A DNA stretch of 64,000 nucleotides from an uncultured Clostridia bacterium (GCA_947589645.1 CANQCG010000001.1:19179-83178), one strand, 5' to 3'. Numbered from the stretch's first letter, positions 13,939-35,679 are shown. Program-made: numbers and translations. The notes: a model not told the origin generated them from the letters alone.

Positions 13939-13966
13939 TTGACAATGAAAAGCCCAAGAGTATAAT
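13939..13966 (+). promoter_or_regulatory. sigma-A-type promoter for the A1-B1 operon (TTGACA - 16 nt - TATAAT)
   Basis: The -35 is TTGACA at 13939..13944 and the -10 is TATAAT at 13961..13966, about 30 nt upstream of the A1 start. Confidence 0.5.
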
Positions 13967-13996
13967 TTATTATAAATAAATATGTTTGGAGGAAAA

Positions 13997-16900
13997 GTTA
14001 TGAAAAACAAAGTATTAAAAATAGCAATAGCAATTGTGCTAATAATGGTTATGACCATGTCAGATTTTATTTTTCTCGGCATGAGTGTAATAGCATATGC
14101 TGAGCAAAATGGCAGTGATGCAACAAATCATGCAAACGTTAAGTTTAGCACGTATTTTAAAGCGGAGGAAAGAAAAGTATCACAGAGCAAAATACAGATG
14201 GATAGCCAAGATATGAAGTTATACATGAACGTATCAGTAAAAAATGAAGGATACTTTGATGGAGTAATAACTTTAGAAAGCAGCAATTTCAAGCTAAAAC
14301 CAGAGAAATTAAGTGAATGCATAAGTAGCATAGAAGGAAACAAAATTATTCTAAACCGTGTAAGAGCTGGCGAAAGCATAGAAATTGAAGTAGGAATAGA
14401 GCCTATAAGAGAAGAAAACTATGGCGAAAATATGCTAGAAAAGATAAGTAAAATAAAACTAACTGGAAGCTATAAAGATAGCACAGAGAAAACTATAAAC
14501 ATAGACGCAACAAAAAATGTAGTTTTAGATTTACTTACACCAAGTAATTTAGACACAGCTTTATCATCACAAGTAATAACAAACAAGATATTTAAAATTG
14601 GTGAAGAAGAAAAAAGAATAGTACAAGTAGAAATAGATTCTACAGTATTACAAAATGCATATCCAATAAAAACTACGAACTTCGAAGTGACATTACCAAA
14701 AGAGGCAGAAGATATAGAAGTAATAGCGAAAGAAACTTCAGCAACAGATGGAAATTTAGATAGAAAATTAAACAATAAAAATTATAGCTATGATAAAGAA
14801 AGTAGCTTGTTAAAACTAGCAATAGAAAACGAAGTAAAAGATGGTAAGATAGTATGGAAACAAGAAGCAAAAGATAGCATAATAGTTACATTTGTTTTGC
14901 CAGTAGAAAAAGAAATAACAGAAGAAGAATATTTAGTAAAATCAAAAGTTGATTTTTATGGTGAGGAACAAACAAAAATAGAGAAAGAAGCAAAATATAA
15001 TTTACAACAAGAGGCAAATGGAATAATAAGAACAGAAGTACAAAACAAAGAAGAGATATACAAAGGAAAAATATATTCAAGAGAAGAAAGAGAATATTTA
15101 ACCCAAACAAATATAGAAATAAACTATTCAAACTTAGTTGAAGGAAACACAGTTGTAGAAAATGTAACATATAAAACAGAAACAGAAGAAAAACAAGCAA
15201 ATATAGAATATAAAACAACTACAATTAATAAGGCAGAAATACAAAAGGTATTAGGAGAAGAAGGAACATTAACATTAAAAAATGGAGCAGAAATAATAGC
15301 AGAAATTACAAATAAGACTGAAGCTAATGAAGAAGGAAACATAGTAATAAATTACAACGCAGGAGTAAAAGAATTAACAATAGAAATTACAAAAGCAGTA
15401 GAAACAGGAATAATAAGATTAAAACATACAAAAGTGATAAAAGAAGAAGCATATACAAAAGATGAAATAGTAGCAATAAAAGGGCTTGTAGAGAGAGCAA
15501 GCGTAAATTACAATTTAGGAGAACAAACATTAGGATATAATTGCGAAAAAGTAACAGAATTAAAAGAAACAAAAACATTAACAGAATTGTCAGTAGCACC
15601 AACTAACTTATCAACAGCAGTAGTAAATGAAGAAGTAAAATTTGCATTAACATTAAAAACAGATAATGAAAAATATGATTTATATAAAAATCCTACAATA
15701 ACAATAAAATTACCAGACTATGTAAAAAATATAGAACTAAAGAAAGCTAATGCCTTATACTTAGAAAGCATGCAAGTGTCAAGATTTTATTATTTAAACA
15801 ATACAAAAGAATTAAAATTAGAATTACAAGGCGAACAAACAAAGTATAATGGAACCAACAATAACATATACATTGAAATTTTATTAAATATAGAATTAGA
15901 GGAAACTATACCAAGTAAAAAAGATGCTATAACATTAACATATACAAACGACAAAGCAGTTACGTATGAAAACGAAGGAAAAGTGCTTGTACCAATAAGT
16001 ATAACAGGAATAAATGGGTTAGTTTCATTTAATAAAATAACAAACTATAATGTAAAAACAAATTCAGTAACAAGTAAAGAAGAACAAATAGCAGATGTAG
16101 AAATGAATAGTATGGCAACTGAAGCAAATGCAGAAATAGCACTTGTAAATAATACTGGAACAAAATTAACAGATGTAAAAGTTTTAGGCAACTTACCAGT
16201 AGATGGAGAGTTTAAATTAGGGAACTATACATTTGAAAACACAATAGGAGCAACATTAAAAAATGGAATAAATGTGCAAAATGAGGCAGCAACTGTGTAT
16301 TATACAGCAAATGAAAATGCAACAAAAGACTTAGGTAATGCAGAAAACGGATGGACAACAAATTTAAATGAGGTAGCAAATCCAGTATTATACATGATAG
16401 TAATACCAAATATGGAAGTAGAAACAAACTTTATAGCAAACTATACAATGAAGGTACCAGCAAACTTACAATATAATAAAGATATGAAAACAACATATAC
16501 AGTAGATTATATAGTAAATGATTCAACTACAACAGTAAATGCAGTACCAGTAGGACTAGAAACAGGAAAAGTAGAAGTACAATTATTAGCAAGTGTAGGT
16601 GGAAACGTAATAGAAAATAACAGCATGGTAAGAGCAGGAGAAGTAATAAAATACACAATAAATGTAACAAATACAGGTAGTAACGATGTACAAAATGTGA
16701 AAGTATCAGCATCAGTACCAGATGGAACAGTATATATAGAGCCACTAGAAAATTCTGTGTATGTAGAACCACTAAACTTATATTATGAAGAAAATGCAGA
16801 AAAGGAAACAGTAGAAGCAACTTTCGAAAATATTAAGGTTAATGAAACAAAAACAGTAGAGTATGAAGTAAGAGTAAAATCTGATGTAACTGAAGAAACA

Positions 16901-18988
16901 GCCTTAAACCAAGCAACAGTTACATATAATGACAATGTGGAAGTAAAATCAAATGAGGTTACTAACTCTTTAAAAGAAGGAAAAGTAAGAATAACTGTAA
17001 AAAGAGGAACAGATACATCATTAGATCTTTTACAATCACAAAATATAGCATATTTTATAATAGTAGAAAATATATCAAACGAAGAAGTTAAAAACTTAGA
17101 AGTAAAAATAAACATACCAGAAGAACTTAAGTTATCTGAAGTTATAGATACAGATATAGAAAGCATATTACCTCTTTCAAATATAATACAAATTGATTCT
17201 ATAAAACCTGACGGAAATAAAGTATATAAAATATTTACGTGCGTAAATAAATCTGACGAAGCACAAAAAGCTACTAATATTACAGCAACAGTAGAACAAA
17301 AAGATGAGAGTATTGTTTATAGATCTAACTCATTTGATGAAATAGTTTATGGCTTTGATATTGATATTACAATGACAGGAACACGAGAAGGAGAATATTT
17401 AAAACCAGAAGATATAATAGAATTTGAAATAACAGTTGTAAATAATTCACTTATTAATGCAATAAACTATGAAGTAACAACTACAATACCAGAGCAATTA
17501 AGTATTAATAAAATAGAAGTTGACGGAGTAGAAGAAGAAAACATAATAGGAAATAATTTTTCAAAAGTATTAGGAGATTTACTTTCTGGCGAAACTATTA
17601 AAATAAAAATAGAAGCAATGGTAAATTATGATCCAACTAGAACAAAAATCGAAACTATTTCAACATCTGCAAATTTAATAAATTCAGGTGTTGTAGAAAA
17701 ACAAACAAATGCAATAGTACATTATTTAGAGGCAATTAAGAAACCTGGAGAGGAAGTGGTAGACCCAGATGACCCAGACAATCCACCAGTAGATCCGCCA
17801 ATAGATCCACCAGAAGACCCAGACAACCCACCAGTAGATCCAGATGATCCAGATAATCCAGATAAGCCACCAGTAGACCCAGATGATCCGGACAACCCAG
17901 ACAACCCAGATAACCCAGATAACCCTCCAACAGTTAATAAATACAGCATATCCGGTAAAGCATGGATAGATAGAAATCAAGATGGTGAACTAAATGAAGA
18001 TGATGCAGTTTTAAAAGATATAAAAGTAAGATTATTAGATTTAGCAACAAATCAATTCGTAAGAAATGATGAGGGAACAAAAGATTTAATTGTAGAAACT
18101 GATGATAATGGAGCATATATATTTGTAAATATAAAAGAAGGAAAATACATTGTAGTATTTGAATATGATACAAGTTTATATAAGCCAACAGATTATCAAA
18201 AACAAGGAGTACAAGAAGCTAATAATTCAAATGTAATTACAAAAACATTAGATATTAATGGCGAAGAACAAGAATATGCAACAACAAATGAAATCGAATT
18301 AAATCAAAACATAGCGAACATAAATATGGGCTTAGCATTTACAAAGAGATTTGATATACAAATAGATAAATATATAACAAAATTAATAGTACAAACTTCA
18401 CAAGGAACAACAACATATGATTATAAAGATAAAGATTTCGCAAGAGTAGAGATAAATGCAAAAAGAATAATAGGATCAAGTATATTAGTACAATATACAA
18501 TAAGGGCAACAAACACAGGAGATGTAGATGCATACATCAATTCACTAGTGGATTATATGCCAAATGACCTAAAATTTAACTCAGAATTAAATAAAGATTG
18601 GTATGAATTAAATGGCAATTTATATACAAGCAGTTTAATGAATACACCAATAGAACCAGGAAAGAGCAAAGAAGTTAATTTAATATTAACAAAGACAAAA
18701 ACAGATGGAAATGCGGAATTAATAAATAATATGGCAGAAATACAAGAAGCATATAACATATATGGAATAATAGATACAAACTCACAAACTGAAAATCAAA
18801 ATAAAGACGAAAACGATTTAGGATCAGCAGATTTATTAATAAGTATACAAACAGGTAGAGCATTTAGCTATATAACTTTAGTAATACTTATGATAGCAGT
18901 AATTGGAATTGCAACTTACTTAATAAATAAAAAATTATTGCATATAGACTCTAATGGAAAGGAGGAAGACATAAATGCAAAAAAATAA
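13997..18988 (+). CDS. giant surface protein A1. It has a signal peptide, DUF11 repeats, a Pro/Asp-rich linker, an SdrD-B-like domain, a further DUF11 repeat and a C-terminal SIQTG motif followed by a TM segment and a basic tail.
   Basis: ATG 13997 follows GGAGGA; the track start 13982 lacks an RBS. The DUF11 signature is VRAGEVIKYTINVTNTGSNDVQNVKVSASVPDGTVY. The SdrD-B-like block runs SGKAWIDRNQDGELNEDD...DDNGAYIFVNIKEGKYIVVFEYD. The C-terminus is ...LLISIQTGRAFSYITLVILMIAVIGIATYLINKK. Confidence 0.85.
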   Translation, partial: VMKNKVLKIAIAIVLIMVMTMSDFIFLGMSVIAYAEQNGSDATNHANVKFSTYFKAEERKVSQSKIQMDSQDMKLYMNVSVKNEGYFDGVITLESSNFKLKPEKLSECISSIEGNKIILNRVRAGESIEIEVGIEPIREENYGENMLEKISKIKLTGSYKDSTEKTINIDATKNVVLDLLTPSNLDTALSSQVITNKIFKIGEEEKRIVQVEIDSTVLQNAYPIKTTNFEVTLPKEAEDIEVIAKETSATDGNLDRKLNNKNYSYDKESSLLKLAIENEVKDGKIVWKQEAKDSIIVTFVLPVEKEITEEEYLVKSKVDFYGEEQTKIEKEAKYNLQQEANGIIRTEVQNKEEIYKGKIYSREEREYLTQTNIEINYSNLVEGNTVVENVTYKTETEEKQANIEYKTTTINKAEIQKVLGEEGTLTLKNGAEIIAEITNKTEANEEGNIVINYNAGVKELTIEITKAVETGIIRLKHTKVIKEEAYTKDEIVAIKGLVERASVNYNLGEQTLGYNCEKVTELKETKTLTELSVAPTNLSTAVVNEEVKFALTLKTDNEKYDLYKNPTITIKLPDYVKNIELKKANALYLESMQVSRFYYLNNTKELKLELQGEQTKYNGTNNNIYIEILLNIELEETIPSKKDAITLTYTNDKAVTYENEGKVLVPISITGINGLVSFNKITNYNVKTNSVTSKEEQIADVEMNSMATEANAEIALVNNTGTKLTDVKVLGNLPVDGEFKLGNYTFENTIGATLKNGINVQNEAATVYYTANENATKDLGNAENGWTTNLNEVANPVLYMIVIPNMEVETNFIANYTMKVPANLQYNKDMKTTYTVDYIVNDSTTTVNAVPVGLETGKVEVQLLASVGGNVIENNSMVRAGEVIKYTINVTNTGSNDVQNVKVSASVPDGTVYIEPLENSVYVEPLNLYYEENAEKETVEATFENIKVNETKTVEYEVRVKSDVTEETALNQATVTYNDNVEVKSNEVTNSLKEGKVRITVKRGTDTSLDLLQSQNIAYFIIVENISNEEVKNLEVKINIPEELKLSEVIDTDIESILPLSNIIQIDSIKPDGNKVYKIFTCVNKSDEAQKATNITATVEQKDESIVYRSNSFDEIVYGFDIDITMTGTREGEYLKPEDIIEFEITVVNNSLINAINYEVTTTIPEQLSINKIEVDGVEEENIIGNNFSKVLGDLLSGETIKIKIEAMVNYDPTRTKIETISTSANLINSGVVEKQTNAIVHYLEAIKKPGEEVVDPDDPDNPPVDPPIDPPEDPDNPPVDPDDPDNPDKPPVDPDDPDNPDNPDNPDNPPTVNKYSISGKAWIDRNQDGELNEDDAVLKDIKVRLLDLATNQFVRNDEGTKDLIVETDDNGAYIFVNIKEGKYIVVFEYDTSLYKPTDYQKQGVQEANNSNVITKTLDINGEEQEYATTNEIELNQNIANINMGLAFTKRFDIQIDKYITKLIVQTSQGTTTYDYKDKDFARVEINAKRIIGSSILVQYTIRATNTGDVDAYINSLVDYMPNDLKFNSELNKDWYELNGNLYTSSLMNTPIEPGKSKEVNLILTKTKTDGNAELINNMAEIQEAYNIYGIIDTNSQTENQNKDENDLGSADLLISIQTGRAFSYITLVILMIAVIGIATYLINKKLLHIDSNGKEEDINAKK
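17752..17930 (+). repeat. tandem short codon repeats encoding the (PDDPDNPPVD)n Pro/Asp linker of A1
   Basis: Reiterated gac cca gat gac cca gac aat cca cca gta units are seen directly. Confidence 0.7.
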
Positions 18989-21900
18989 AACACGAAGGAA
19001 ACTATTAGCAGTATTAGCTGTAACTCTAATTGTTATGGGATTACTAATTGGTAAAGTGTCTGCGGATTATGCGTTACCATGGGATGATGGCAACGGGATC
19101 TATTATAATCAAGCGGACTTTGGAGTAGATTATACTAAAACTGTAGATGGTCATGGACGTATATATATTTGGCAAGCTGGAAAAAACCTCCAAGATACAT
19201 GGCAACAATGGTCAATAGGACGACATGCTGCTATGACAGCCTGGACAGATAACTACATGGAGGATAATAGTTTAAAAAATAGCGCTGGCGTTTCATTGAG
19301 AAGGTATGCAAATGCAACAAAAGATGCAGATGGCAATTATGATGGTTATTATCGAACTAAGAGTGGTAGGTATGTATATGATTATTATGGATCATTTTTC
19401 CAACAACTGTTTAATAAAGATATATACTGTGCACAACAAGGACAGACATTAACTAGAAATGGTGTATGGGAATTAAAGTATAAGATTAAGATTGGAATAG
19501 ATGGCACTACTAAAGAACCTAAAATTACTGAAGCTATTAAAAAAGGTAATGGAGAAATAGTTGATCCAAAGTATACTGATGCAAATTTACCATACAACAC
19601 AACTGCAAATGCAACAAGAGCAAATAAAATTCTTATAGAATTAGTAAAAGAAGGAAAGGCACACGAAACAACCAGAAAAAGAACAATAGCTTCTGTTATA
19701 CATCAAGATATTTATCAACATGCAATATGGCAATATTTTGATCAGTGGAGAGATATTGTTTTTGGAACAGGTGTAATACCTGAGATAACAAAACCAGGAA
19801 CATATAAACATGAGGACTCTGGAACACAGTCAGGCTATGAACACGATGACAATTATGATGCCGGAGAAGAAATATTAGATGAAATAATTCGTCGAGTAGA
19901 TAATGGTATGACAAATTATGGACAACCTTATATTAATAGAGAAGATACTCAGGAAGATAGGTTAAAAACAACTGTTGATGGAACATATACAATTTTAGGA
20001 CCATTTAATTATACTTTTAATGGTAACATTTCATCAATTGATGTGTCTTATAATCAAAATGCTGACTACGAAACAAATAAAACATTTGGAACATTTGTAG
20101 GAAATACCTTTAAAAGCAAAAATATGTCAGACATAACCAGTGGAAATGACTTTTATGTTAGAATACCTACTGCAAACTTATCAGCACACAAAAAAATTTA
20201 TCTTAAAATAAAAGTAACGAATAATAATGTACCAAATGAAACAGCTATATACATATTTACAAATGATACCCAACAAACAATGGCATATATTGATCAAGAC
20301 TATATATCTGGTTCAGCAGAAAGTACAGAAGAATATATTTATGGAATAGAGCAATCAGTATCAATAATAAAGAAAAATGAAGCTGATTTACCTGTAGCAA
20401 ATATTATATTTGATATATATGATGGTAGCACTTATGTTGGAAGCTTGACTACAAGTAAAGAAGGAACAACAAAAACAATAGATCTAGAACCAGACAAAAA
20501 ATATACATTAAAAGAGAGATCTAATAGTGAATATGGATATAAAAACGCAAATATTGCATCTGCAACCATAACAAATGGAAAAATAACAGTATTGTCAGAT
20601 GGAACTGCTGAATTTACTATAACTAATAATAGTGTAATTACCATAAAAAATGAACCACAATTAGGAAATATTACAATCAAAAAGGTAGGAGAATCTGGAA
20701 AAGGATTAGCAAATGCAGAGTTTATAATTTGGAATGGATATGGTTACTTACAATTATTTACAAGTAGCGGAAGCGTTAGTAGTATAAATAAAAATGTAAC
20801 TATAAGCAAATCAAATACAGCAAGTGCATCAGAGTATAAGGCTGATTTCTCTTCTACTGAAAGAAATAAAGCAACGAGATTTGTAACAAATTCATCAGGA
20901 GAAATAGTAATTAACAATTTGGAAATATATTCAGGCAAAGGAACAACATATCCTTATACAATAGAAGAAATAGGCAACAATAATTACGGATATAGAGGAT
21001 TAGTATTGACAAATGCAACAGTTAGTGGAGCAACAAAAGATTCTGTAGATACAGACAAAAGACAAGTAAAAATATCAAATATAGGTAATAACAGTGTAAT
21101 TACGATAGAAAACTCAGAAGAATTAGTAAACATACATTTGAAAAAACAAGGAGATAATAAGAAAGATTTAAGTGATGTAGAATTTGTAGTAAAAAGAGAA
21201 GGAAATAATTCTTCAAACACAGGTTATTTAAGACTTAACAGTTCTACAGGACCTATAACAACTCAAAATTCAGGCCTAGATGTAAGAAAATATACAATAG
21301 ATTATGTAACTGATATAAACCAAGCAACCAGATTTAAGACAAATGAATCAGGAAATATAGTTATAAATGGCTTAGAAAAATACGAGTCTAAAGGAATAAA
21401 ATATACTTACAAAATCAAAGAAATAGCTAATAGTAATTACGGATATAACGGAATGATTTTAGAAAGTACAACAGATACAAAAGAAGCAAAAATAACAGAT
21501 GATATTAAAAATAGAGAAATTACTATTAAAAATTCAGAAGATGATGTAGAGTTAACAATAAACAACAAATCAGCTTTAGGAAATCTAGAACTTATAAAAG
21601 TAGATGAAGATTCACCATCTATAGTATTAGAAGGAGTTCAATTTAAAGTAACAAAAGATGGAAAATATCTACAACTTAAAAATAATAAGGACGAAGTACA
21701 ATCTACAGTAAAAGGAACAGTTACTATAAATAAAAATAATCAAGCAAATAATACAGAATATAAAGTAGAATATATAAATGATGCTAGCAAAGCAACAATA
21801 TTTGAAACAGGAGCAGACGGAAAAATAACCATAAACAATCTTGAAGTATATTCAGGAGTAAATTCAGCACAAAACCCAATACAATGCACATATGTATTTG

Positions 21901-25019: not shown

Positions 25020-25024
25020 TCAAA

Positions 25025-25060
25025 ATAAGAAAATGGGCTAGCCCATTTTCTTATTTTTTG
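25025..25060 (+). terminator. rho-independent terminator after B1
   Basis: Stem ATAAGAAAATGGGC / GCCCATTTTCTTAT, followed by TTTTTTG. Confidence 0.7.
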
Positions 25061-25209
25061 CCTATAAAAAGCAAATAAAAACCGAATTTAAGTAATATAT
25101 TTATAAAGATTTTATATTGTAATTTATAAAAGTTTTCAAAATGATTTATAACCATTGCTGAAAGTATGATAAAATACGCAAAAAATGATGTAAAAAATTG
25201 CTAAAATTG

Positions 25210-25238
25210 TTGAAAAATGTTTGAAAAAGTGCTATAAT
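25210..25238 (+). promoter_or_regulatory. sigma-A-type promoter with an extended -10 for the A2-B2 operon (TTGAAA - 17 nt - TGcTATAAT)
   Basis: The -35 is at 25210..25215 and the TGn-extended -10 at 25230..25238, about 55 nt upstream of the A2 start. Confidence 0.55.
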
Positions 25239-25291
25239 CAAATTATTGAGGAGTATTATAAATATCAATAAAAAATAATGGAGGAATAGTT

Positions 25292-28200
25292 ATGAAAAAC
25301 AAAGTATTAAGGATAAGCATAGCAATATTATTAATAATTGCAATGACAATATCTGATTTTGCATTTTTAGGTATGAATATAATAGCTTATGCTGCTGGAA
25401 ACGCAAGCGATTCAACAAATCATGAAAATGTAAAATTTGCTACGTATTTCAAAACAGACAAAGGAGAAAAAGTATCTGAAATTAAATATAACATAGATGA
25501 TACTAATATGAAACTATATATGGAAGTAGCAGTACAAAAACAAGGGTACTTTGATGGAGTAATAACTTTAAATAATAGCAACTTCAATATAAAACCACAA
25601 GTTTTAACTGATTCTATTAGCAAAATCGAAAACAATACTATAACTTTAAATCGTATTACTGCTGGTAATACAGCAAAGATTGAGTTATCTATAGAACCAA
25701 TAACAGTTGAAGACTATAATTTAAATTTATTAAATATGCAAAGCAATATAGCATTATCTGGAACATATAAAGATAGCACTGAAAAAGACATAAATATAAA
25801 AGCAGAAAAATCAGTGTCTTTAAATTTGGTAGCTCCAGAAAATTTGAGTACTAGCTTAGAAGCTAAATTAATAACTAATAGAATATATAAAATAGGCGAA
25901 GAAAGTAAAAGATTAGTACAAATTGAAGTAAAATCATCTGTTGTAGAAAGCGCTTTTCCAATAAAATCTTCTAGATTTGTAATAGAAGCTATACCAGGTT
26001 TAGAAAGTGTTCAAGTTTTATCAAAAGGAACTTATGCAACAAATGGTAAAGCTGAACAATTACTAGAATCTAATAGTTATCAATATGATTCTAATAATAA
26101 TACCGTATCTTTTACAATAGAAAACCAAGCTAATAATGGCAAAATATCTTGGAAAAAGGGTGGAGTAGACACTATAATAGTTACCTTTGTATTAGATGAT
26201 GAAGCTAACCTTCCAGAAAAAGAATATACAGTTAATTCATTAGTATCTTTTTACGGAGAATCAGAAAAAAAGATAGAAAACAATAAAACTTATACATTAC
26301 AAGAAGCAGATGGAATACTTAAAACAACAGTAACAAATGAAGAAACATATATGTATAAAGGTAAAATATATTCAAAACAAGAAAGAGAGTATAATACAAC
26401 AACAAATATAGAAGTTAACTATGCAAATTTAGCAAAAAATATACAAATTAATCAAACCACAGTATATGAAACAGAAGCAAACGAAAAAGCTTCAAATATA
26501 GAATATAAAACAACAACAATTTCTAAAGCAGAGCTTGAAAAAATATTAGGGTCTCAAGGGAAAATTACAATTAAAGATCAAAATGGCAATGTTATTAGAG
26601 AAATAACAGCAAGTTCAGAAGCAGACCAAAATGGAAATTTTGTTATAAATTATGCAGGAGGAGTAAAATCATTAAATATAGAAATGACAACACCTGTAAA
26701 TGTAGGAATACTTAGATTATCACATACAAAAGTAATAAAACCAGAAAATTATTCTAGAGCAGATATACAAGCATTTAATTCTTTAAACGAAAAAGTTGTA
26801 ACAAAATACAATTCTACTGCAAATGATACAACTGAAAATTTGGCAGAATACGAATATACAAGAAAAATGGGCTTAAATGAAACAAAAACACAAGTTGATG
26901 TAACAGTAGAACCAAGAACATTATCTACGGTTGCAACAAATGAACAAGTAAAAATAGCAATGACTTTAAGAACAAATGAGGAAAGATATGATTTATTTAA
27001 AAATCCTACCTTAACAATAAAACTACCAGACAGTGTAAAAGATGTTTCGAATATGACAGTAACACCACTATATTTAGATGGTTTTGAAATTCAAAGTAAT
27101 CAATATTTACCAGAAACTAGAGAAATAAAACTAGTACTTAAGGGTGAAAATCTACAATATACAACAAGCAATACACAAGGTTATATAGAAATACTTGCAG
27201 ATATAGATTTAGAAGAAACAACGCCAAATGGTCTAGATAAAATATCTCTTACTTATACTAACGAAAATGCAAGTACATATGATAATGACGGAAAAAAAGA
27301 AGTTACAGTACAAATATCAGGTTTAGCTGGCCTAATTGCTTATAACAATATAATATCAGAAAATATAAAGACAAACTCTTTCTTAACAACAGAAGAAAAA
27401 TTAGCAAATTTACCAGTTAATGCAGGAACAAAAAGATTGAGTTTCCAAACAATTTTATTAAATAACTCAGCATCAGCAATAACAAGCGTAACAGTAAAAG
27501 GTGTATTACCTTTAAAGGGAAAAACCGAGCTAGGAGAAAATAATATAGATAGTTCTTTAACTTCTAAAATTTTAGTAAACAACCCAGATGCAAAAGTTTA
27601 TTATACATCAAATGGAGAAGCGACTACAGATTTAGCTAATGAAAGTAATGGATGGAATGAAGATATAAATTCAGTTCAAAATCCGGTACTATATATGATA
27701 ATAATACCAGAAATTGCTTCAAGACAAAGAGTAGAAGCAACATATGAAATACAAATACCAGCAAGGCTAGAATATAATAAAACACTTAAAACATCATATA
27801 CTGTAGATTATTTGACTGACCAAGGACAAAGAAGAGTAGTATCAGCAGTAGTAGGGGCTACAACAGGAGTAGGCGCAGATTTAGTAGCAACATTAAATGC
27901 AACAGTAGGTGCAGATATACTAAATGAACAAAGTACAGTAAAAGCTGGAGAAGTAATTGAATATACAATGTCTGTTACAAATAAAGGAAATGCAGAAGCA
28001 CATAATGTAAAAATTGTGGGCTTAGTTCCTGAGGGAACAGTATATGTAAAACCAATGGAAGACTTTGTATATGCAAACCCTGTAAGTTTATATTATGATG
28101 AATTTGAAGATATAAAACAAATAGAGCAAATATTTGATAATATAGGTATAGGAGAAACAAAAACAGTAGTATATGAAGTAAGAGTAAAGTCAGATACAAC

Positions 28201-30217
28201 ATCAGGAGTAGCAGCAAATAAAGTAACTGCTACGGCTGATAATGCAATAGAAGTTTCATCAAATGAAATGTCTAATAAATTAGAAGCTGGTAACATTAGA
28301 GTAACAGTAAAAAGAAGAACAGATTTATCAGTTATACCAGTAAATAAGCAAATGATTCGTTATTTTGCTATAGTAGAAAATATATCAAATTCAGAAGCTA
28401 AAAATGTTGAATTACAATTAAATATACCAGAAGAGCTTAACTTGATACAAATAGATGATTCTTCAAATGGAGAAATAACTGAATCAGAATCTAAAATAAC
28501 TATTGATTCAATACCAGCAGGACAATCAAGAGTGTATGAGTTATATACCCAATTAAAAGATATTGAAGAATTAGAAAAATTACTTAATATTAATGCTATA
28601 GCAACATATAATGGTAGCCAATATAGATCAAATGCTTATAAAGAGATGGCTTATGGTTATGATGTTAAAATTACTATGACAGGAACACATGAGGGAGAAT
28701 ATTTAAAACCAGGAGATGTAATAGATTTTGATATAACCGTTATAAACAATTCGAAAGTATCATTGTCAGGTTATACAGTAGAAAGTACAATACCAGAGCA
28801 GTTATCAATAGAAAAAATACAAGTTGATAATATAGAACAAACTGTATTAGATCCAAACTATTTCACGATACAAGTAGGAGGATTAGAGGCAGGAAAGAGC
28901 ACAATAATAAAAATAACAGCAACAGTTAGAAATTCTTTAGATAGAAGCGAGGTAGAAAAAATTTCTACAGTAGCAAATTTAATGTATGCTGGTGAAATTG
29001 TACAAACTACAGAGCCACCAATAGTTCATTTCTTAGAGGCTATTAATGAGCAACAACCAGACATACCAGATTTACCAGAGAATCCAGACAACCCAGATAA
29101 TCCACCAGTAGATCCAGATGACCCAGACAATCCACCAATAGATCCAGATGATCCAGATAACCCACCAGTAAATCCTGAAAAGAATAAGTATAATATTTCA
29201 GGAAAAGCATGGGTAGACCAAGATAAAAATGGACATTTAGATAATAATGATACAATCTTATCAAATATAGTTGTTAGATTACTAAACATAGAAACAAATG
29301 AATTTGTACGCAATGATGACGGTAATAAAGACTTAACAGTAACTACAGACAAAGAAGGATTTTATAGCTTCGAAGGAATTGAAGAAGGAAAATATATAGT
29401 AGTATTTGAATATGATAATACATTATATAAACCAACCATGTACCAAAAATATGGCGTAGAAGAAAGTAAAAATTCAAATGTTGCATCAAAGACATTATCA
29501 ATAAATGGAGAAGAAAAAGAATATGCAACCACAGATGAATTAGAGTTAAATAAAAATATATCTAATATAAATTTAGGGCTAGTATTTATAAAACAATTTG
29601 ATATACAAATAGATAAATATGTAAGCAAAATAATAGTTCAAACAAGTAATGAAACAAGAACTTATGAGTACAATAATCAAGCAGAATTAGCAAGAGTAGA
29701 AATTTCAGCTAGAAGAATTGTGGGAGCAACAATAATTGTACAATATACTATAAAAGCAACAAACTTAGGGGATGTAGATGCTTATATTAATAGCTTAGTA
29801 GATTATGCACCAAATAGTTTAAAATTCAGCTCAGAATTAAATACTGATTGGTATGAATCAGAAGGCAATTTATATACAAATAGTTTAGCAAAAACAGCAA
29901 TAGCACCAGGACAAAGTAAAGAAGTAACATTAACATTAACTCAAACTAAAACAGATGGAAATGCAGAACTTATAAACAATACTGCAGAGATTCAAGAAGC
30001 TTATAATATATATGGAATTGCAGATATGAATTCAACTCAAGCAAATAAAAACTTAGATGAAAATGATTTAGGTTCAGCAGATGTACTTGTAAGTATACAA
30101 ACGGGTAGTGCATTTAATTATATTACATTAGTAATATCAATGCTTGCAGTAATTGGAGTTGGAGTATATTTAATAAATAAGAAAATATTACATTTTCATT
30201 TGCGTTGGAAATTTTAG
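25292..30217 (+). CDS. giant surface protein A2, a paralogue of A1 with the same DUF11 / linker / SdrD-B-like / SIQTG-TM architecture
   Basis: The N-terminus MKNKVLRISIAILLIIAMTISDFAFLGMNIIAYA parallels A1. DUF11 block VKAGEVIEYTMSVTNKGNAEAHNVKIVGLVPEGTVY, linker PDNPDNPPVDPDDPDNPPIDPDDPDNPPVNP and SdrD-B-like SGKAWVDQDKNGHLDNND... are present. The C-terminus is ...VLVSIQTGSAFNYITLVISMLAVIGVGVYLINKK. Confidence 0.85.
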   Translation: MKNKVLRISIAILLIIAMTISDFAFLGMNIIAYAAGNASDSTNHENVKFATYFKTDKGEKVSEIKYNIDDTNMKLYMEVAVQKQGYFDGVITLNNSNFNIKPQVLTDSISKIENNTITLNRITAGNTAKIELSIEPITVEDYNLNLLNMQSNIALSGTYKDSTEKDINIKAEKSVSLNLVAPENLSTSLEAKLITNRIYKIGEESKRLVQIEVKSSVVESAFPIKSSRFVIEAIPGLESVQVLSKGTYATNGKAEQLLESNSYQYDSNNNTVSFTIENQANNGKISWKKGGVDTIIVTFVLDDEANLPEKEYTVNSLVSFYGESEKKIENNKTYTLQEADGILKTTVTNEETYMYKGKIYSKQEREYNTTTNIEVNYANLAKNIQINQTTVYETEANEKASNIEYKTTTISKAELEKILGSQGKITIKDQNGNVIREITASSEADQNGNFVINYAGGVKSLNIEMTTPVNVGILRLSHTKVIKPENYSRADIQAFNSLNEKVVTKYNSTANDTTENLAEYEYTRKMGLNETKTQVDVTVEPRTLSTVATNEQVKIAMTLRTNEERYDLFKNPTLTIKLPDSVKDVSNMTVTPLYLDGFEIQSNQYLPETREIKLVLKGENLQYTTSNTQGYIEILADIDLEETTPNGLDKISLTYTNENASTYDNDGKKEVTVQISGLAGLIAYNNIISENIKTNSFLTTEEKLANLPVNAGTKRLSFQTILLNNSASAITSVTVKGVLPLKGKTELGENNIDSSLTSKILVNNPDAKVYYTSNGEATTDLANESNGWNEDINSVQNPVLYMIIIPEIASRQRVEATYEIQIPARLEYNKTLKTSYTVDYLTDQGQRRVVSAVVGATTGVGADLVATLNATVGADILNEQSTVKAGEVIEYTMSVTNKGNAEAHNVKIVGLVPEGTVYVKPMEDFVYANPVSLYYDEFEDIKQIEQIFDNIGIGETKTVVYEVRVKSDTTSGVAANKVTATADNAIEVSSNEMSNKLEAGNIRVTVKRRTDLSVIPVNKQMIRYFAIVENISNSEAKNVELQLNIPEELNLIQIDDSSNGEITESESKITIDSIPAGQSRVYELYTQLKDIEELEKLLNINAIATYNGSQYRSNAYKEMAYGYDVKITMTGTHEGEYLKPGDVIDFDITVINNSKVSLSGYTVESTIPEQLSIEKIQVDNIEQTVLDPNYFTIQVGGLEAGKSTIIKITATVRNSLDRSEVEKISTVANLMYAGEIVQTTEPPIVHFLEAINEQQPDIPDLPENPDNPDNPPVDPDDPDNPPIDPDDPDNPPVNPEKNKYNISGKAWVDQDKNGHLDNNDTILSNIVVRLLNIETNEFVRNDDGNKDLTVTTDKEGFYSFEGIEEGKYIVVFEYDNTLYKPTMYQKYGVEESKNSNVASKTLSINGEEKEYATTDELELNKNISNINLGLVFIKQFDIQIDKYVSKIIVQTSNETRTYEYNNQAELARVEISARRIVGATIIVQYTIKATNLGDVDAYINSLVDYAPNSLKFSSELNTDWYESEGNLYTNSLAKTAIAPGQSKEVTLTLTQTKTDGNAELINNTAEIQEAYNIYGIADMNSTQANKNLDENDLGSADVLVSIQTGSAFNYITLVISMLAVIGVGVYLINKKILHFHLRWKF
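29063..29175 (+). repeat. tandem short codon repeats encoding the Pro/Asp linker of A2
   Basis: Reiterated cca gac aac cca gat aat cca cca gta gat units are seen directly. Confidence 0.65.
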
Positions 30218-30235
30218 AGGAAAGGAGGGAAAAAT

Positions 30236-33200
30236 ATGAACAAAAGTAAGAAAAAATATTATTTAATTGTTATTTTAGTTATAGCTTTAATGATTATGGC
30301 AGCTTTAATTAATAGTGTTTCATCTACTAATTATGATACCGGAAAAGATAAAAATGGTAACCCATATATAAATAGTTTCGATTTAAGTACATGGATTATT
30401 GGAAGATATGCAGGAATTAATGCGTTTGATACGACTACAGATGGCAATACTTATGCAAAAGGCTTCCAAGTAGTAGATAATAAAAATTTCTTTTGTGCAG
30501 AACAAGGACAAAATTGGAAAAATGGAAGCTATCAATTAGTATCAAAGATAGTAATACATGGATCAAGCATTGCTAGTAGCGAATATGTTGGCACTCAATT
30601 AAAAACCAAAGAAAATGATGCTGCTGTTACTGCTAATAGAATTTTAACGGAAATAGTAAAAGAGGCAGAAGAATCAAAAAATGTAAGAAATAGATCAATA
30701 AGTGCTTATATAACAGAAGATGTTTTCCAACACGTTATATGGCAATATATGTCAGAATGGGCTGGAGCAAATTTCTCTTATTGGGGTAAAAACAATGATA
30801 ACAAATACGACTGGATAAGTGGTATACCATATATAACTCAAACTTCACAAAATTATGATAGTCAAGATTACGAACACAAGGAAGCTAGAGAACAAGGAAA
30901 GGCTAAGTTAAATGAAATAAAAACAAAGGTAGCAAATAGCAAGCCAGATGAAAAGGCTCAAATATCAGTTGTAAATAAAAAAGATGTATTACTTAATTCT
31001 AATGCAAACATAGAAGGTGAGAATACTATATTAGGACCTTTTAAATATTCTTATTCTGGAACAGTAACACAATTAGATATTTACTATAACAGCATAAATA
31101 ATAAGGCTACAGCTCAAATAGGAACATTTAATGGAACAACCTTTAAACCTATTGGTAATATTTCAAATTTACCTAATAATAAAGAAGTTTACATTAAAAT
31201 ACCTACTAAAGAGTTAAGTGGAAAACAAAATTTGAGTATACACATTAAAGTAGCAAGTACAACTATAGGAGCAACTACTACAGTATATATTTGGAGAAAT
31301 GAAGATGCCCCAGCGCAAAATATGATATATGTTGACCAAAAACCAGAAAATAGTGAAGCAGAAATTTCAGATGATTATAAATTAAGGTTAACAGAGCAAG
31401 TATCTATATTAAAACAAAATGAAAACAAAGAAGCTTTACCAGGAATAAAATTTGAAATATATGATGCAAACAATAAATTAGTCGGCACATTGACATCTGA
31501 AAAAGATGGAAAAACAAATGAACTAACACTACAAACTAACCAAGTATATCAATTAAGAGAAGTATCAGCAGATATATATGGTTATAGGAGACGTTCTATT
31601 GAAAAAGATAACATAAGTATTACAAATGGAGAAATAATAGAAGTAAGAAATGGCGTTGCAAACTTCAAAATAAAAGATAGCAGTGTAATAACTATAATAG
31701 ACGATAAATATATACGTGATATTGAAATAGCAAAAACAGATAAGCAAAATAAAAAAGGAATTGAAGATGTATCTTTTGTAATAAGAACCAATACAACTAT
31801 ATCTGGAAAAGAATATGCAGGTTTCTTATCATTATACAATAGTAAAGGAGAATTTGTACCTGAAGTAAAAGGCACAGTTACAATAAATAAAAATAATGTA
31901 GCAACAGATTCTAATGGTATTGAATACGAAGTAAGATATGAAAATATGGGAACGGAAAATTTAACCTTTGACAAATTACCTTTAGAAGATTTAGAAAGTG
32001 CTAAAATTACAGTATTTAAAACAGATTCTAATGGAAAAATAACAGTTAAAAATCTTGAAGTATATTCAGATTTAAATGCTACATATAATTACACAGCTTA
32101 TGAAATATCAAACCCAAATTATGGTTATGGAGCAATTACTAATAAATCACAAAGTGCTTCAACAGGATCATTAGTAAAAGGAAATGGTTCAATATCAATA
32201 ACTAATGATAGAAATTTAGGAAATATTTCAGTATTAAAAGTTGATGAACAAAATAAAGATATTACTCTAGCTAATGTTGGCTTTGTATTAGAAAATTATA
32301 CAGACACAAATAAATATGCTTATATAGCATTGTATGACACAAATGGTAAACTAGTATCAAGTATTACAGGAACTGCTACAATAAACGAAAAGAATGTGGC
32401 TACAAACAATGAGTATAGAGTTGAATATAAATCTTTTGCAGGAAAATCATATGCTGAATTATCAGATGATGAAAAAGCACAAATTACAACTTTTGTTACT
32501 GATGATAAAGGAAAAATTTTAATAAATAATTTGGAAAAATACTCATATATAGATGGAGCACAAATTACTTATAAATTAATAGAGGTTTCTAACCCTCATG
32601 CTGGATTTGAAGCAAGTGGGGCAGAGTTTGGCGATATTACAATAGAAAATGGCAAAACATTTGAAGCTATAGTACCAAATAAACAAAAATATATTAATTT
32701 ATCTGGTTATGTATGGATAGAAAAAACTTATGGTAAAGGAAATTCTTTTGATTTAGTTTATACAGAAAAAGACGAAAGTGGCAAAAAAATAGATATAAAA
32801 CTTACAGGAATTTATATTAAAGATGAAAGCGGTAAATTAATGCTAAATGAAAACTATTCAATAGAGGGCATTCCAACAAAAATCGAGATAAAATTAAGAG
32901 ATAAGACAACAGAAGAATATGTAAAAAATATTCCAGATGATTATGACACAAATGGAAAATATACATTTATTAATGTAGAAACCGATAAACTTAAGGACTA
33001 TGAGGTAGTGTTTATATATAATGGATTCTATTATACAACAATAACAGAAAATATAAATGTTGATAATGGTTCAAAGGTAAAAGAATCTGAAGCAGAAAGA
33101 AAAACCTTAAATGATAAATTTGGAGAAGTAACTAATGAAGGAATTACATCTGTAGACGGAAAAGAAAGATATGGAGTTATATATGATAAAGGTACACATG

Positions 33201-35623
33201 TATCAACATTATCAAGATTTGATGAAGAACTTGAAAAATATATAAATATAACAGCCAATACTACTTCTGCAAACTATTTAATAGACCAAAAGTATAATGA
33301 ATTAAAATCAAAGGGACCTGTATCAACAATTGATAATATTAATATGGGAATAGTTGTAAGAGAGCAACCTAATATATCAATTACTAGTGATATACACAAT
33401 GTAAAAGTTGGTTTTAATGGATATCAATATACATATTTATATGATAATAGGCGAGACCATTATGAAAATGTAGATGATATTGATATAGGTGTTAAATTTG
33501 AACAAGATTATCCATTACAAAGATATACAAGAACTGTATATGCTTCTGATATTGAAGCAGCAATACAAGAAAATAAAGAGATAACAGTTTCAGTAACATA
33601 CAGAATAGGAATTTCTAACTTATCAAGACAATTAAGAATGTTGCCAAAAGAAATAATAAATTACTTTGATAGTAGGTATGATATAAGAACTGTAGGAATG
33701 GGCTTAAATGAAAAATATGAGGTAACCGATGCACTTGGTTATACAACGCCACAAGATGTTGAGGGCTTACCATATAAATCAACAGTAATAACCTTCAATC
33801 AATTATTATATGCAAAAGATGAGGCAGAAGGAGAACCTACTACAACAATAAAGAACATGTATATAACATTTGATATACAATGGGAAGCAATAAAAGATTT
33901 ACTAAATAATAATTCAACATATCATAATGCAACAGAAATATGTAGTTATACAACTTATTATGGAAGTTTAACGACTTATTCAGATGGACAACAATTTATG
34001 ACAGATCACAGTGTAGCAAATACTGTATATGCAGGTATTGATAAAATGTCACAACCAGGAAATATGACATTAAAATTAATAAATCACCCAGAAGAAGAAG
34101 GTACACAAATTCTAGATACATCTGATTATGAACTTGATACAGATTCAGCACCATCATTATTATTAGATGCAAATGGAGAAAGAACTATATCAGGAACAGT
34201 TTGGGAAGATGCAATTACTAATACTATTGATAACCAAAAACTAGGTAATGGTATATTTGAAGCTAGTGAAAAAACCGTAACAAATGTTACAGTAGAACTA
34301 CACAATATAAATAGTGATGGAACTATTGGAGATATAGCAAAATTCTCTGATGGATCACCAGCTACAGCAATTTCAGGAGAACAAGGTAATTACAAATTTG
34401 GTGGTTATAATGAAGAAACTAACAAACATGTCGGAATATTACCTGGTAGATATGTCATAAGATACATTTATAATAATGATTCTAAAGTTGTAGATAAAAA
34501 AATAAATGTTAATGAATACAAATCAACAATAATAGTATCAGATACAATTAAAAATGCATTTGAATCTGGAAATGAAAAATGGTATGCAATTAAAGATTCT
34601 ACTAGATATTCAGATGCAAGGGATAATATATATTTAAGACCTGAATATAACTCTAATATTGATAAAAACAATATAACAGTTAAAAATTCATCATATAGTG
34701 ACATATCATTAAGTGAAATGCAAGCTAATACACCAGTTATGGATATTGGGCTAGAGTTTACGGAAAGTAATGTAATAGATGCTATAGCAGAACAAACACA
34801 AGGTGGTCTTGAAAATGTAGATTTTGGTATAGTAGAAAGACCAGACATAGATATAACAGTTGAAAAGAAAATAACTTCATTAGAGATATTAGCTCAAAAT
34901 GGAACAGTAATTGTACCAAAAAATGATCCTTCAAATAAAGATGTTGTAATGAAATATGTAAGAACAGGTTTAAAAGGAATAGTACCAGTAGAAATGGATG
35001 TAAGTCTATTACAAGGTGCTAAGCTAAACTTAGATTACACTATTTCTATACAAAATAGTAGTGACAAAGATTATGAAGAACAAGAATACTATTATTATGG
35101 AACTGGAGGAAAGACTCTAAGAGTAACAAAAGTTCTAACATTAGTAGATTATCTTGATGAATCAATGACATTAGATGCTAATAATACAAGTTGGGAAGAA
35201 AGCACACCAGAATATTTATTAGAAAATGGACTAATAAGTAGTGACATATATGATTTGATGAAAGATTCAGGAAATGTTAATGTGTTAATAACACATGCAT
35301 TTGAAGAAGATGGTGTTGATGAAGTTAAATTATATACAACTAAATATTTAGCAGTATCAGAATCTATTAGGGAAACAAATGATGTTGAAATAGTAGAATT
35401 ATCAGGAGTGAGAAGCATAAAAGAATCAGTACCTGGAAACTATGACCCAACTAGATCATCAGTTACAATAACAGATGAACGTGATGACGATAAAGTAGAC
35501 TTTACAATTACTCCTCCAACTGGTACGAATGTAAATTATGCACCATATATAATAGCAACAACAGTAACATTAATAATACTAGTATTTGGAGTAGTCATTA
35601 TTAAAAAGAAAATGACAAAATAA
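30236..35623 (+). CDS. giant surface adhesin B2, a paralogue of B1. It has a thioester-domain-like N-terminus, prealbumin-fold repeats and a PPTG sorting signal.
   Basis: Cys87 is in NFFCAEQGQ and Gln165 in VFQHVIWQY. LPGIKFEIYDANNKL-type domains are present. The C-terminus is ITPPTGT followed by a hydrophobic stretch and KKKMTK. The central and C-terminal regions are collinear with B1 (for example GINAGCAPDNIELKLKDHESGDG versus GIDKMSQPGNMTLKLINHPEEEG). Confidence 0.85.
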   Translation: MNKSKKKYYLIVILVIALMIMAALINSVSSTNYDTGKDKNGNPYINSFDLSTWIIGRYAGINAFDTTTDGNTYAKGFQVVDNKNFFCAEQGQNWKNGSYQLVSKIVIHGSSIASSEYVGTQLKTKENDAAVTANRILTEIVKEAEESKNVRNRSISAYITEDVFQHVIWQYMSEWAGANFSYWGKNNDNKYDWISGIPYITQTSQNYDSQDYEHKEAREQGKAKLNEIKTKVANSKPDEKAQISVVNKKDVLLNSNANIEGENTILGPFKYSYSGTVTQLDIYYNSINNKATAQIGTFNGTTFKPIGNISNLPNNKEVYIKIPTKELSGKQNLSIHIKVASTTIGATTTVYIWRNEDAPAQNMIYVDQKPENSEAEISDDYKLRLTEQVSILKQNENKEALPGIKFEIYDANNKLVGTLTSEKDGKTNELTLQTNQVYQLREVSADIYGYRRRSIEKDNISITNGEIIEVRNGVANFKIKDSSVITIIDDKYIRDIEIAKTDKQNKKGIEDVSFVIRTNTTISGKEYAGFLSLYNSKGEFVPEVKGTVTINKNNVATDSNGIEYEVRYENMGTENLTFDKLPLEDLESAKITVFKTDSNGKITVKNLEVYSDLNATYNYTAYEISNPNYGYGAITNKSQSASTGSLVKGNGSISITNDRNLGNISVLKVDEQNKDITLANVGFVLENYTDTNKYAYIALYDTNGKLVSSITGTATINEKNVATNNEYRVEYKSFAGKSYAELSDDEKAQITTFVTDDKGKILINNLEKYSYIDGAQITYKLIEVSNPHAGFEASGAEFGDITIENGKTFEAIVPNKQKYINLSGYVWIEKTYGKGNSFDLVYTEKDESGKKIDIKLTGIYIKDESGKLMLNENYSIEGIPTKIEIKLRDKTTEEYVKNIPDDYDTNGKYTFINVETDKLKDYEVVFIYNGFYYTTITENINVDNGSKVKESEAERKTLNDKFGEVTNEGITSVDGKERYGVIYDKGTHVSTLSRFDEELEKYINITANTTSANYLIDQKYNELKSKGPVSTIDNINMGIVVREQPNISITSDIHNVKVGFNGYQYTYLYDNRRDHYENVDDIDIGVKFEQDYPLQRYTRTVYASDIEAAIQENKEITVSVTYRIGISNLSRQLRMLPKEIINYFDSRYDIRTVGMGLNEKYEVTDALGYTTPQDVEGLPYKSTVITFNQLLYAKDEAEGEPTTTIKNMYITFDIQWEAIKDLLNNNSTYHNATEICSYTTYYGSLTTYSDGQQFMTDHSVANTVYAGIDKMSQPGNMTLKLINHPEEEGTQILDTSDYELDTDSAPSLLLDANGERTISGTVWEDAITNTIDNQKLGNGIFEASEKTVTNVTVELHNINSDGTIGDIAKFSDGSPATAISGEQGNYKFGGYNEETNKHVGILPGRYVIRYIYNNDSKVVDKKINVNEYKSTIIVSDTIKNAFESGNEKWYAIKDSTRYSDARDNIYLRPEYNSNIDKNNITVKNSSYSDISLSEMQANTPVMDIGLEFTESNVIDAIAEQTQGGLENVDFGIVERPDIDITVEKKITSLEILAQNGTVIVPKNDPSNKDVVMKYVRTGLKGIVPVEMDVSLLQGAKLNLDYTISIQNSSDKDYEEQEYYYYGTGGKTLRVTKVLTLVDYLDESMTLDANNTSWEESTPEYLLENGLISSDIYDLMKDSGNVNVLITHAFEEDGVDEVKLYTTKYLAVSESIRETNDVEIVELSGVRSIKESVPGNYDPTRSSVTITDERDDDKVDFTITPPTGTNVNYAPYIIATTVTLIILVFGVVIIKKKMTK

Positions 35624-35642
35624 AAAGTCTATAATGTAGAAA

Positions 35643-35679
35643 ATGAAAGTAGATAAAAAATCTACTTTCATTTTTTTTC
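35643..35679 (+). terminator. rho-independent terminator after B2
   Basis: Stem ATGAAAGTAGAT / ATCTACTTTCAT followed by TTTTTTTT. Confidence 0.7.

Follow-up and report, generated by a model that had tools for sequence, protein, structure and literature searches.

The locus described here raises the question of whether two kinds of giant surface protein, encoded next to each other in an uncultured Clostridia bacterium, act as a single unit and, if they do, what kind of unit that is. The locus lies in a stretch of 64,000 nucleotides (nt) of low-GC DNA (~28%; GCA_947589645.1 CANQCG010000001.1:19179-83178), hereafter called the window. Between 13.9 and 35.7 kb of the window, four very long open reading frames (ORFs) on the plus strand form two collinear pairs, A1-B1 and A2-B2, which an earlier note on this DNA had described as a tandemly duplicated module of giant adhesins; its placement of the ORFs was borne out by our ORF list and translations, apart from the start of A1. 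Judged by genomic context, A and B are passed on and duplicated together and are sometimes fused, and in this sense the pair is a functional unit. On balance, we favor the reading that two fibrillar surface proteins are co-expressed here, of which B would act as a covalent adhesin of the TIE type, with A as its obligate partner, the duplication representing two variants of the pair.

When one genome per species was scanned with a pattern, relatives were detected in at least 251 genomes, and we inspected 78 loci, all of them from uncultured Clostridia-type metagenome-assembled genomes (MAGs) of the human, rabbit, mouse, and sheep gut, including one complete chromosome of 1.55 Mb. In these loci, a B gene was found downstream of all 69 complete A genes that were followed by enough DNA: 61 were clear B ORFs directly on the 3′ side (median gap, 20 nt), and eight, from the most divergent clade, were weaker matches to the B core. 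For the three most divergent B proteins with readable contigs (P0002, P0006, and P0007), an A-type C-terminal module was located immediately upstream in 3/3 cases. The synteny that the earlier note had proposed to look for in other genomes is therefore present, as 69/69 adjacency, as an upstream A at all three divergent B genes, and as recurrent fusions. The A proteins of these genomes are only ~30–35% identical, and the A homologues, of which more than 541 were found, are of similar length, mostly ~1,580–1,780 amino acids (aa), whereas the length of B varies from ~1,200 to 2,300 aa across the family. A metagenome scan with the B core, for which the search patterns were too specific, returned no relatives, and a word-index homologue search with the first 460 aa of B1 gave no hits.

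In-frame A-B fusions occurred at least 17 times (P0004, P0005, and P0008, together with 14 of the 147 top B-core cluster representatives), in each case as a single ORF of 2,700–3,500 aa in which A forms the N-terminal and B the C-terminal part. The fusion junctions, at aa 1335–1395 of P0004, 1385–1440 of P0005, and 1350–1400 of P0008, retain the xxTG motif and transmembrane (TM) segment of A, a basic loop of 5–10 residues, and the signal peptide of B. From this arrangement, the two extracellular giants are predicted to be either linked by a TM hairpin, a sensible topology in which both halves lie outside the cell, or separated post-translationally at both sites. Should the sortase-type and signal-peptidase sites be used, cleavage would still release A and B from the fusion, which therefore shows tolerated 1:1 co-production of the two proteins, not necessarily a complex. 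Adjacency, order, fusion, and co-duplication, the genomic-context criteria for a functional unit, were thus all observed for A-B.

The two pairs in the window are old duplicates. A1 and A2 are 53.3% identical over 1628 aligned residues, from end to end, and B1 and B2 are 42.5% identical over 1719 aligned residues, in agreement with the earlier description of collinear but diverged copies. In cross-locus comparisons, A2 shared 57.6% identity with the single A of locus L005 versus 53.4% with A1, and B2 shared 54.1% identity with a B protein of locus L006 (L006_14903) versus 46.8% with B1; the B genes of locus L004 were also closer. Because orthologues from other species are nearer to A2 and B2 than A1 and B1 are, the duplication predates species-level splits, and the tandem duplication that the note had recognized is both real and ancient. 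Two A-B pairs are carried by L004 and L006 as well, whereas in L015 and L041 the two pairs are mutually closest, indicating separate duplications of the module; overall, two or more A-like genes are present in 31 of the 78 loci. The divergence between B1 and B2 lies mainly in the distal half of the protein, in the form of tip insertions and repeat number, and conservation is highest, in A as in B, in the membrane-proximal parts. As a separate observation, a third, longer A-like gene (~1,800–1,900 aa, ~27–32% identical to the first A) occurs right after A-B in many loci (L011, L012, L014, L016, L018, L034, L051, L052, L053, L060, and L072).

Each pair also appears to be a transcription unit of its own (Table 1). 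The two best promoter-like sites in their respective search intervals precede A1 and A2; promoter-like matches overall were no commoner than expected by chance, so that only the position and score of these two sites carry weight. The A-to-B junction is tight and coupled through a ribosome-binding site in both pairs, each B gene having its own such site, and a stable hairpin with a U-run follows each B gene. Because of these promoter-like sites, junctions, and terminators, we regard the pairs as two consecutive, separately signaled operons, as had been claimed for the window. The start of A1 required correction: the mechanical ORF begins at 13982, and the earlier note had placed the start at 13997 (1663 aa), whereas the ATG at 14000 is preferred because of the GGAGG in front of it, giving a protein of 1662 aa. 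An Rfam scan upstream of A1 and A2 detected no riboswitch, for cyclic di-GMP (c-di-GMP) or otherwise, and in the whole window gave two tRNAs only.

As read from its sequence and domain matches, A is a long β-sandwich stalk, consisting of about eight Ig-like domains, CLIPPER repeats, a spacer, an SdrD_B domain, and a terminal CLIPPER-like domain. The order of DUF11 repeats, Pro/Asp linker, SdrD-B domain, and SIQTG-TM tail given in the earlier note was upheld, since DUF11 and SdrD_B exceeded the curated Pfam cut-offs in both A1 and A2, and NCBIfam also matched the DUF11-type repeat. DUF11 has been renamed CLIPPER and is a CnaA-like stalk domain that often contains an intramolecular isopeptide bond, although the Lys-Asn isopeptide triad is not present in all DUF11 domains (PMC12617251). 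The Pro/Asp spacer is 38–60 aa long in the A proteins, and the membrane-proximal CLIPPER-like domain is 69–76% identical between A1 and A2.

The B proteins consist of a signal peptide, an N-terminal domain of 350–420 aa (hereafter, the tip), three or four SpaA/CnaB-like repeats that each close with an E(I/V)xNxxYGY-type motif, a core of ~1000 aa, and a tail. A profile of 69 B N-termini matched SpaA/CnaB chains in the PDB (4oq1, 9lty, 6fwv, and SpaA) with E-values of 2e-13 to 1e-9, and full-length A and B gave no match when compared directly with PDB sequences. Among 34 B-family members, 14 matched Pfam SpaA (PF17802; best E-value 2.9e-27) and 25 matched SdrD_B (best E-value 1e-15). The architecture proposed for B therefore stood in part: the PPTG tail is present and SpaA passes the cut-off in B2, whereas B1 has only a sub-threshold SdrD_B match (16.6–23.7 bits) and neither protein matches a thioester domain (TED) model. 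By itself, the B core delimits a family that, at 50% identity, comprises 1470 clusters (723 of them at E ≤1e-30), and the core is always C-terminal. Identity between B1 and B2 is 40–54% in the core versus 29–38% over the N-terminal ~900 aa, and the lowest identity and largest indel fall in the SpaA-like repeat region, where B1 has four repeats and B2 has three. The first ~250 aa, which had been singled out as the most divergent part of B, are thus not uniquely so; the whole N-terminal ~900 aa is less conserved than the core, and the repeats are the lowest.

The tip of B has the residues expected of a TED. In an alignment of 69 B N-termini from related loci, a Cys is invariant (69/69) in the context [YF(L)]C[VMAI][EQ], which reads YCAQ in B1 and FCAE in B2, and a Gln lies 135–300 aa past it in 65/69 tips, within a ΦQ(N/R)ΦΦ or yQNLI-type motif; this Cys and this Gln are essentially the sole universal residues of the tip. 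Between them there is a QxxΦW helix motif (QHAIW in B1 and QHVIW in B2), with Q in 48, A in 50, and W or Y in 68 of the 69 sequences. Published TEDs are marked by the motifs [YFL]CΦζ, ΦQζΦΦ, and TQXXΦW, of which the bonding Cys and Gln alone are universal, the Gln and Trp of TQXXΦW being non-essential, and class II TEDs differ from class I by an inserted β-sandwich (PMC6194298). All three motifs are found in B1, B2, and the family. Furthermore, the B tips fall into two size classes, with a Cys-Gln spacing of ~135–170 aa or ~225–300 aa, and the longer class contains an inserted β-sandwich (the GPFxWxFxG region). From these motifs, rather than from demonstrated membership, the B tip is quite likely a divergent TED. 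A papain- or transglutaminase-like Cys enzyme was considered for the tip and rejected, because there is no conserved His or Asp beside the Cys.

The C-terminal tails suggest how the two proteins are held at the surface. The consensus from 79 A and 67 B sequences is ΦΦΦ[S/G]Φ[R/K/Q]TG in the A family and ΦΦΦTP[P/S/N/A]TG in the B family, followed by ~25 hydrophobic residues and a Lys/Arg tail, and the TG dipeptide (T1618/G1619) is invariant across the aligned A family. All four proteins of the window combine a signal peptide with the tripartite C-terminus of sortase substrates (TG motif, hydrophobic segment, and basic tail), and the tails, SIQTG-TM-basic in A and (I/T)TPPTG-TM-KK(R/K) in B, agree with the description in the earlier note. 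Comparable non-LPXTG tails, with xxTG followed by a TM segment and basic residues, are found in the SrtB substrates of Clostridioides difficile and in CbpA. In that species, SrtB cleaves (S/P)PXTG, and the NVQTG motif of CbpA is not cleaved in vitro (PMC4155245). The TPxTG of B is one residue off (S/P)PXTG. We infer that the proteins are attached to the wall by a sortase encoded elsewhere in the genome; plain membrane anchoring may be the alternative.

Taken together, the reading that we favor would proceed as follows. A and B would be exported by the Sec pathway, held by their C-terminal segments, and probably then moved to peptidoglycan by the distant sortase. An internal Cys-Gln thioester in the tip of B would react with a nucleophile on the ligand, and A, made in fixed proportion to B and at the same surface site, would serve as a co-displayed scaffold, spacer, or co-adhesin. 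The conserved membrane-proximal parts would face the envelope or each other, whereas the distal part of B, in its tip and repeat number, would be free to diversify, and the duplication would supply two variants with different tips and lengths.

Several results weigh against this reading, most of them concerning the tip. No TED model matched any of the four proteins of the window; Pfam TQXA matched none of 34 B members, with no match for B1 or B2 even at E 10, and an NCBIfam thioester-domain match was found in 0/65 members. A TED-only profile of B found nothing in the PDB at E ≤10. When the B tip was aligned by hhalign with the validated class II TED adhesin TIEpLS20 and with a class II TED profile of eight sequences (TIEpLS20 and seven plasmid relatives), the result was local and non-significant (49 columns; E-value 0.013–0.016, probability ~3%; for the eight-sequence profile, E-value 0.016 and probability 2.8%). 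Roughly one-quarter of the B relatives lack the Gln of QxxΦW, though this residue is non-essential in TEDs. The AlphaFold2 model of the B2 tip, built on a five-sequence alignment, had a pLDDT of 47; a Foldseek search with it gave nothing at E <0.001, a result that is meaningless because the model is poor. As for anchoring, the [S/G]ΦxTG motif of A is without the Pro of LPXTG-type signals and, as SIQTG, resembles the NVQTG that SrtB leaves uncleaved in vitro (PMC4155245), unlike the (S/P)PXTG substrates. Pfam scans identified no sortase in the window, and 86 loci searched to ±10 kb around the pair (1.84 Mb; TLxTC signature regular expression and SrtA tblastn) yielded none either. The constancy of A beside a B of 1,200–2,300 aa also argues against a strictly side-by-side fiber.

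An alternative that cuts across all the other readings of the pair is that the tip is not a TED. It would then be another kind of tip, such as a module that binds without a covalent bond or an enzyme-like fold that depends on its Cys, and B would belong to the ordinary adhesins with an isopeptide stalk. This is a serious but rather unlikely possibility. It accords with the fact that no homology or fold test against known TEDs reached significance, so that the TED-like N-terminus proposed in the earlier note stands on its Cys, Gln, and QxxΦW motifs, every hidden Markov model, profile, and fold test having been negative or non-significant. However, an enzyme of the Cys type would be expected to show a conserved His or Asp, whereas the only universal residues are the Cys and Gln, in the contexts and order published for TEDs, and the two size classes parallel those of class I and class II. 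The same non-significant hhalign alignment places the invariant Gln of B on the thioester Gln256 of TIEpLS20 and SGxxFYIxxP on GGxxFYLTAP, and the order of elements in the weak B2 model (pLDDT 47), which runs from strands through three helices, the second of them bearing QxxΦW, to a β-sandwich and the Gln strand, is compatible with class II.

A different relationship between the two proteins would be a covalent two-subunit fiber, in effect a minimal pilus, in which a sortase joins the Thr of the B TPxTG to a Lys of A, with B at the tip and A as the base or stalk, and the [S/G]ΦxTG of A would then anchor the fiber to the wall; in a variant of this model, the B thioester would attack a nucleophile on A. 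In Streptococcus pyogenes, the thioester tip adhesin Cpa sits on the FctA/Spy0128 pilus shaft, and the A-B locus is similar in that a thioester-type tip gene stands beside a stalk or shaft gene, each with a sorting-type signal. The two different, separately conserved xxTG motifs of A and B recall tip and base pilins, and the strict gene order, tight junctions, recurrent A-B fusions, and invariant Lys residues in the A N-terminus (for example, K355 in IYKGK) would also fit. Sortase-assembled pilus loci, however, normally carry a sortase, and none adjoins the pair in any searched locus; no canonical pilin motif was identified in A or B; both are 5–10 times larger than pilins; and the stalk gene comes first and the tip gene second, unlike in the Cpa-FctA locus. 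The position of B on the C-terminal side of the A TM segment in the fusions is compatible with a pilus but does not demand one. With its variant included, we consider this model improbable.

Of similarly low standing is the proposal that A and B are subunits of an undescribed, lineage-defining surface organelle in a large clade of uncultured gut Clostridia, a covalent heteromeric fiber built without a pilus-type sortase, whose tip would constitute a third class of TED, invisible to current hidden Markov models, and whose coupling would occur through the B thioester or by joining the B TPxTG to a conserved nucleophile on A. It is a speculative long shot at present. We are equally doubtful that A and B are independent fibrillar adhesins that are merely co-transcribed and neither interact nor cooperate. 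Each protein does come equipped with all that is needed for its own secretion and anchoring, the length of A is constant where that of B varies, and clustering is common among adhesin genes. Nevertheless, a linkage this tight would be unusual for unrelated adhesins: adjacency is complete despite the low identity of the A proteins, A also precedes all three divergent B genes checked, the genes duplicate together, and the two are joined in frame in at least 17 independent cluster representatives. Least probable of all is a lineage-specific structural layer of the envelope or spore surface, which would suit the fixed site beside mreBCD-pbp-minC (and often spoIIE), the near-constant length and collinearity of A in at least 251 species, and the share of the 1.55-Mb genome given to the pair (about 0.7–1.4%), but not the sigma-70-like promoters, which are not obviously of a sporulation type, the domain set of fibrillar adhesins (CLIPPER, SdrD_B, SpaA/CnaB, a TED-like tip, and a tail resembling cell wall sorting signals), or the variable tip and repeat number, which suggest diversification driven by a ligand or host.

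Table 1. Positions of the genes, signals, and domains of the two A-B operons, counted from the first nucleotide of the window
Feature	Position	Strand	Details
Sigma-70-like promoter, A1-B1 operon	13939..13966	+	TTGACA-16-TATAAT, 12/12 matches; best-scoring site in 13300-25400; 34 nt 5′ of A1 start
A1 gene	14000..18988	+	1662 aa, stalk-type giant surface protein; GGAGG 7 nt before ATG
A1 signal peptide	14000..14101	+	MKNKVLK...IAYA/E; AYA site nearly invariant in A family
A1 N-terminal array	14102..16609	+	About eight β-sandwich (Ig-like) domains, aa 35-870; without Pfam family
A1 DUF11/CLIPPER (CnaA-like) repeats	16616..17749	+	PF01345 E 6.4e-14; TIGR01451 E 1.2e-14
A1 Pro/Asp-rich spacer	17750..17929	+	60 aa, DPDNPP-type; variable, low-complexity across family
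A1 SdrD_B	17948..18259	+	PF17210 E 1.1e-8; 35.6 bits vs cut-off 29.7
A1 membrane-proximal CLIPPER-like domain	18320..18841	+	Sub-threshold DUF11 E 4.3e-4; most conserved part of A
A1 tail	18842..18985	+	SIQTG + TM + basic tail, sorting-signal-like
B1 gene	18975..25019	+	2014 aa; 14-nt overlap with A1 end; AAGGAGG 8 nt upstream
B1 N-terminal Cys/Gln (TED-like) domain	19065..20306	+	Cys152 19428-19430; QHAIW 19716-19730; Gln434 20274-20276
B1 four SpaA/CnaB-like repeats	20352..21941	+	Each ends ...E(I/V)xNxxYGY; Pfam sub-threshold on B1 alone
B1 conserved core	21942..24905	+	~990 aa; SdrD_B/CarboxypepD_reg-like and CLIPPER-like β-sandwiches
B1 tail	24906..25016	+	TPPTG + TM + KKRIVK, sorting-signal-like
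Intrinsic terminator after B1	25022..25057	+	16-bp stem and U-run; -18.6 kcal/mol; z -5.6 vs shuffles
Sigma-70-like promoter, A2-B2 operon	25210..25238	+	TTGAAA-17-TG-TATAAT, 11/12, extended -10 TG; best site in 24900-36000
A2 gene	25292..30217	+	1641 aa
A2 DUF11 (best stretch)	27929-28264	+	E 7.9e-20
A2 Pro/Asp spacer	29075-29188	+	
A2 SdrD_B	29204-29503	+	E 6e-11; 43.0 bits vs cut-off 29.7
A2 SIQTG-TM tail	30092-30214	+	
B2 gene	30236..35623	+	1795 aa; starts 18 nt after A2; own GGAGG
B2 TED-like domain	30317-31348	+	Cys87 30494-30496; QHVIW 30728-30742; Gln361 31316-31318
B2 SpaA	31397-31636, plus two further repeats	+	E 9.4e-8; 32.5 bits vs cut-off 23.1
B2 core	32627-35509	+	
B2 TPPTG-TM tail	35510-35620	+	
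Intrinsic terminator after B2	35638..35680	+	17-20 bp hairpin and U8; -18.3 kcal/mol; z -5.8 vs shuffles

The chromosomal setting of the pair is itself conserved. In 44 of 58 loci, the first pair comes directly after mreB-mreC-mreD-pbp-minC and a small conserved ORF on the minus strand, and spoIIE lies 3′ of the pair in 17 loci. In the window, minC (12250-12882) is separated by ~48 kb from minD, an ORF in the minE position, and rodA (60802-63348); the stretch between minC and minD contains the A and B genes, spoIIE, acpS, tatD, udg, M16 peptidases, two tRNAs, and other genes. Because related MAGs keep the minC-A-B arrangement, we consider the A-B site to be inherited chromosomal synteny, and a recent genomic island between minC and minD was ruled out on the same ground; the distance between minC and minD appears to reflect synteny particular to this lineage, not a recent insertion. 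Two small minus-strand ORFs without a Pfam match lie between minC and A1, at 12889-13269 (126 aa) and 13238-13678 (146 aa); a homologue of the 146-aa ORF is found at the same place in most related loci, and one of the 126-aa ORF in some. Farther downstream, a helix-turn-helix/DUF4825 gene (47646-49743, minus strand) and an ORF6N-domain gene (50394-50564, minus strand) stand beside two tRNA genes, with a reversed GC skew at 48–50 kb, and this stretch may be a small remnant of mobile or phage origin.

A third giant surface protein, protein C (1966 aa), is encoded at 52208-58108 on the plus strand. Its N-terminus has the TED-type motifs YCIKAHD and IQQAAIW and is followed by SpaA-like domains and by five DUF11/CLIPPER repeats, each with a terminal acidic DSEPG...EDDD linker. 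The tail, LSVNQGGG with a TM segment and KR, is without TG, and the C-terminal domain is 30% identical to the membrane-proximal domain at the C-terminus of A1. Pfam TQXA gave no match to protein C either, and hhalign between its tip and that of B gave short, non-significant local alignments only. After protein C, at 58292-59939, there are genes for a 233-aa protein and a response-regulator-GGDEF protein. The latter gene is 72–74% identical to genes located 3′ of the A-B pair in L001 (17279-19830) and L085 (9049-11542), where an extra CmpB-like gene accompanies the response-regulator-GGDEF gene. Because this gene is common to both settings, genes of the A-B type occupy two different conserved chromosomal slots, one of them beside a c-di-GMP regulator.

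The building blocks of the module are known, namely, CLIPPER, SdrD_B, SpaA/CnaB, and TED-like tips, and TIE proteins already exemplify, in principle, a thioester tip carried by a stalk. The TIE proteins (BaTIE [6FWV], SaTIE, CpTIE, and TIEpLS20) resemble B in having a tip with [YFL]CΦζ, QxxΦW, and ΦQζΦΦ, a CnaB/SpaA stalk, and a sorting motif with a TM segment and basic tail, as well as two tip size classes, the larger (class II) with an inserted β-sandwich. B differs from them in that its tip matches no known TED significantly by sequence, profile, or fold, and in its additional conserved core, for which described TIE proteins have no equivalent, its upstream A partner, and its TPxTG in place of LPXTG. 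Similarly, A shares with the stalks of CLIPPER/SdrD-B fibrillar adhesins a long β-sandwich array with DUF11 and SdrD_B above the Pfam cut-offs, but it lacks a recognizable adhesive head, ends in [S/G]ΦxTG, and is obligately linked to B. Moreover, fibrillar adhesins usually vary rapidly, whereas A is nearly fixed in length (mostly ~1,600–1,700 aa) and collinear over hundreds of species. The earlier note had thought the pairing of a stalk-like with a reactive protein undescribed as a functional unit; this was too broad, since a thioester tip combined with a stalk is known in principle from Cpa-FctA, and it appears to hold for a module of two giant genes without a sortase in the literature that we searched. 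What appears to be undescribed in that literature is the conserved giant module of A followed by B, with no sortase alongside, the ~1000-aa B core, the fusions, and the fixed site; the family of B tips, which lies beyond the reach of current TED models, also appears to be undescribed there.

If the reading that we favor is correct, gut Clostridia of a large and wholly uncultured group, numbering at least 251 species-level genomes, would rely on one two-protein surface module, each genome spending ~1% of a ~1.5-Mb chromosome on a module whose tip probably binds its targets covalently. The natural in-frame fusions predict a 1:1 partnership of A and B. Because current TED models miss the large B-tip family, surveys of covalent adhesins would undercount them. 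The module would also offer new thioester-like and isopeptide-type domains for protein-ligation tools, and it would provide a handle on how these Clostridia attach in the gut.

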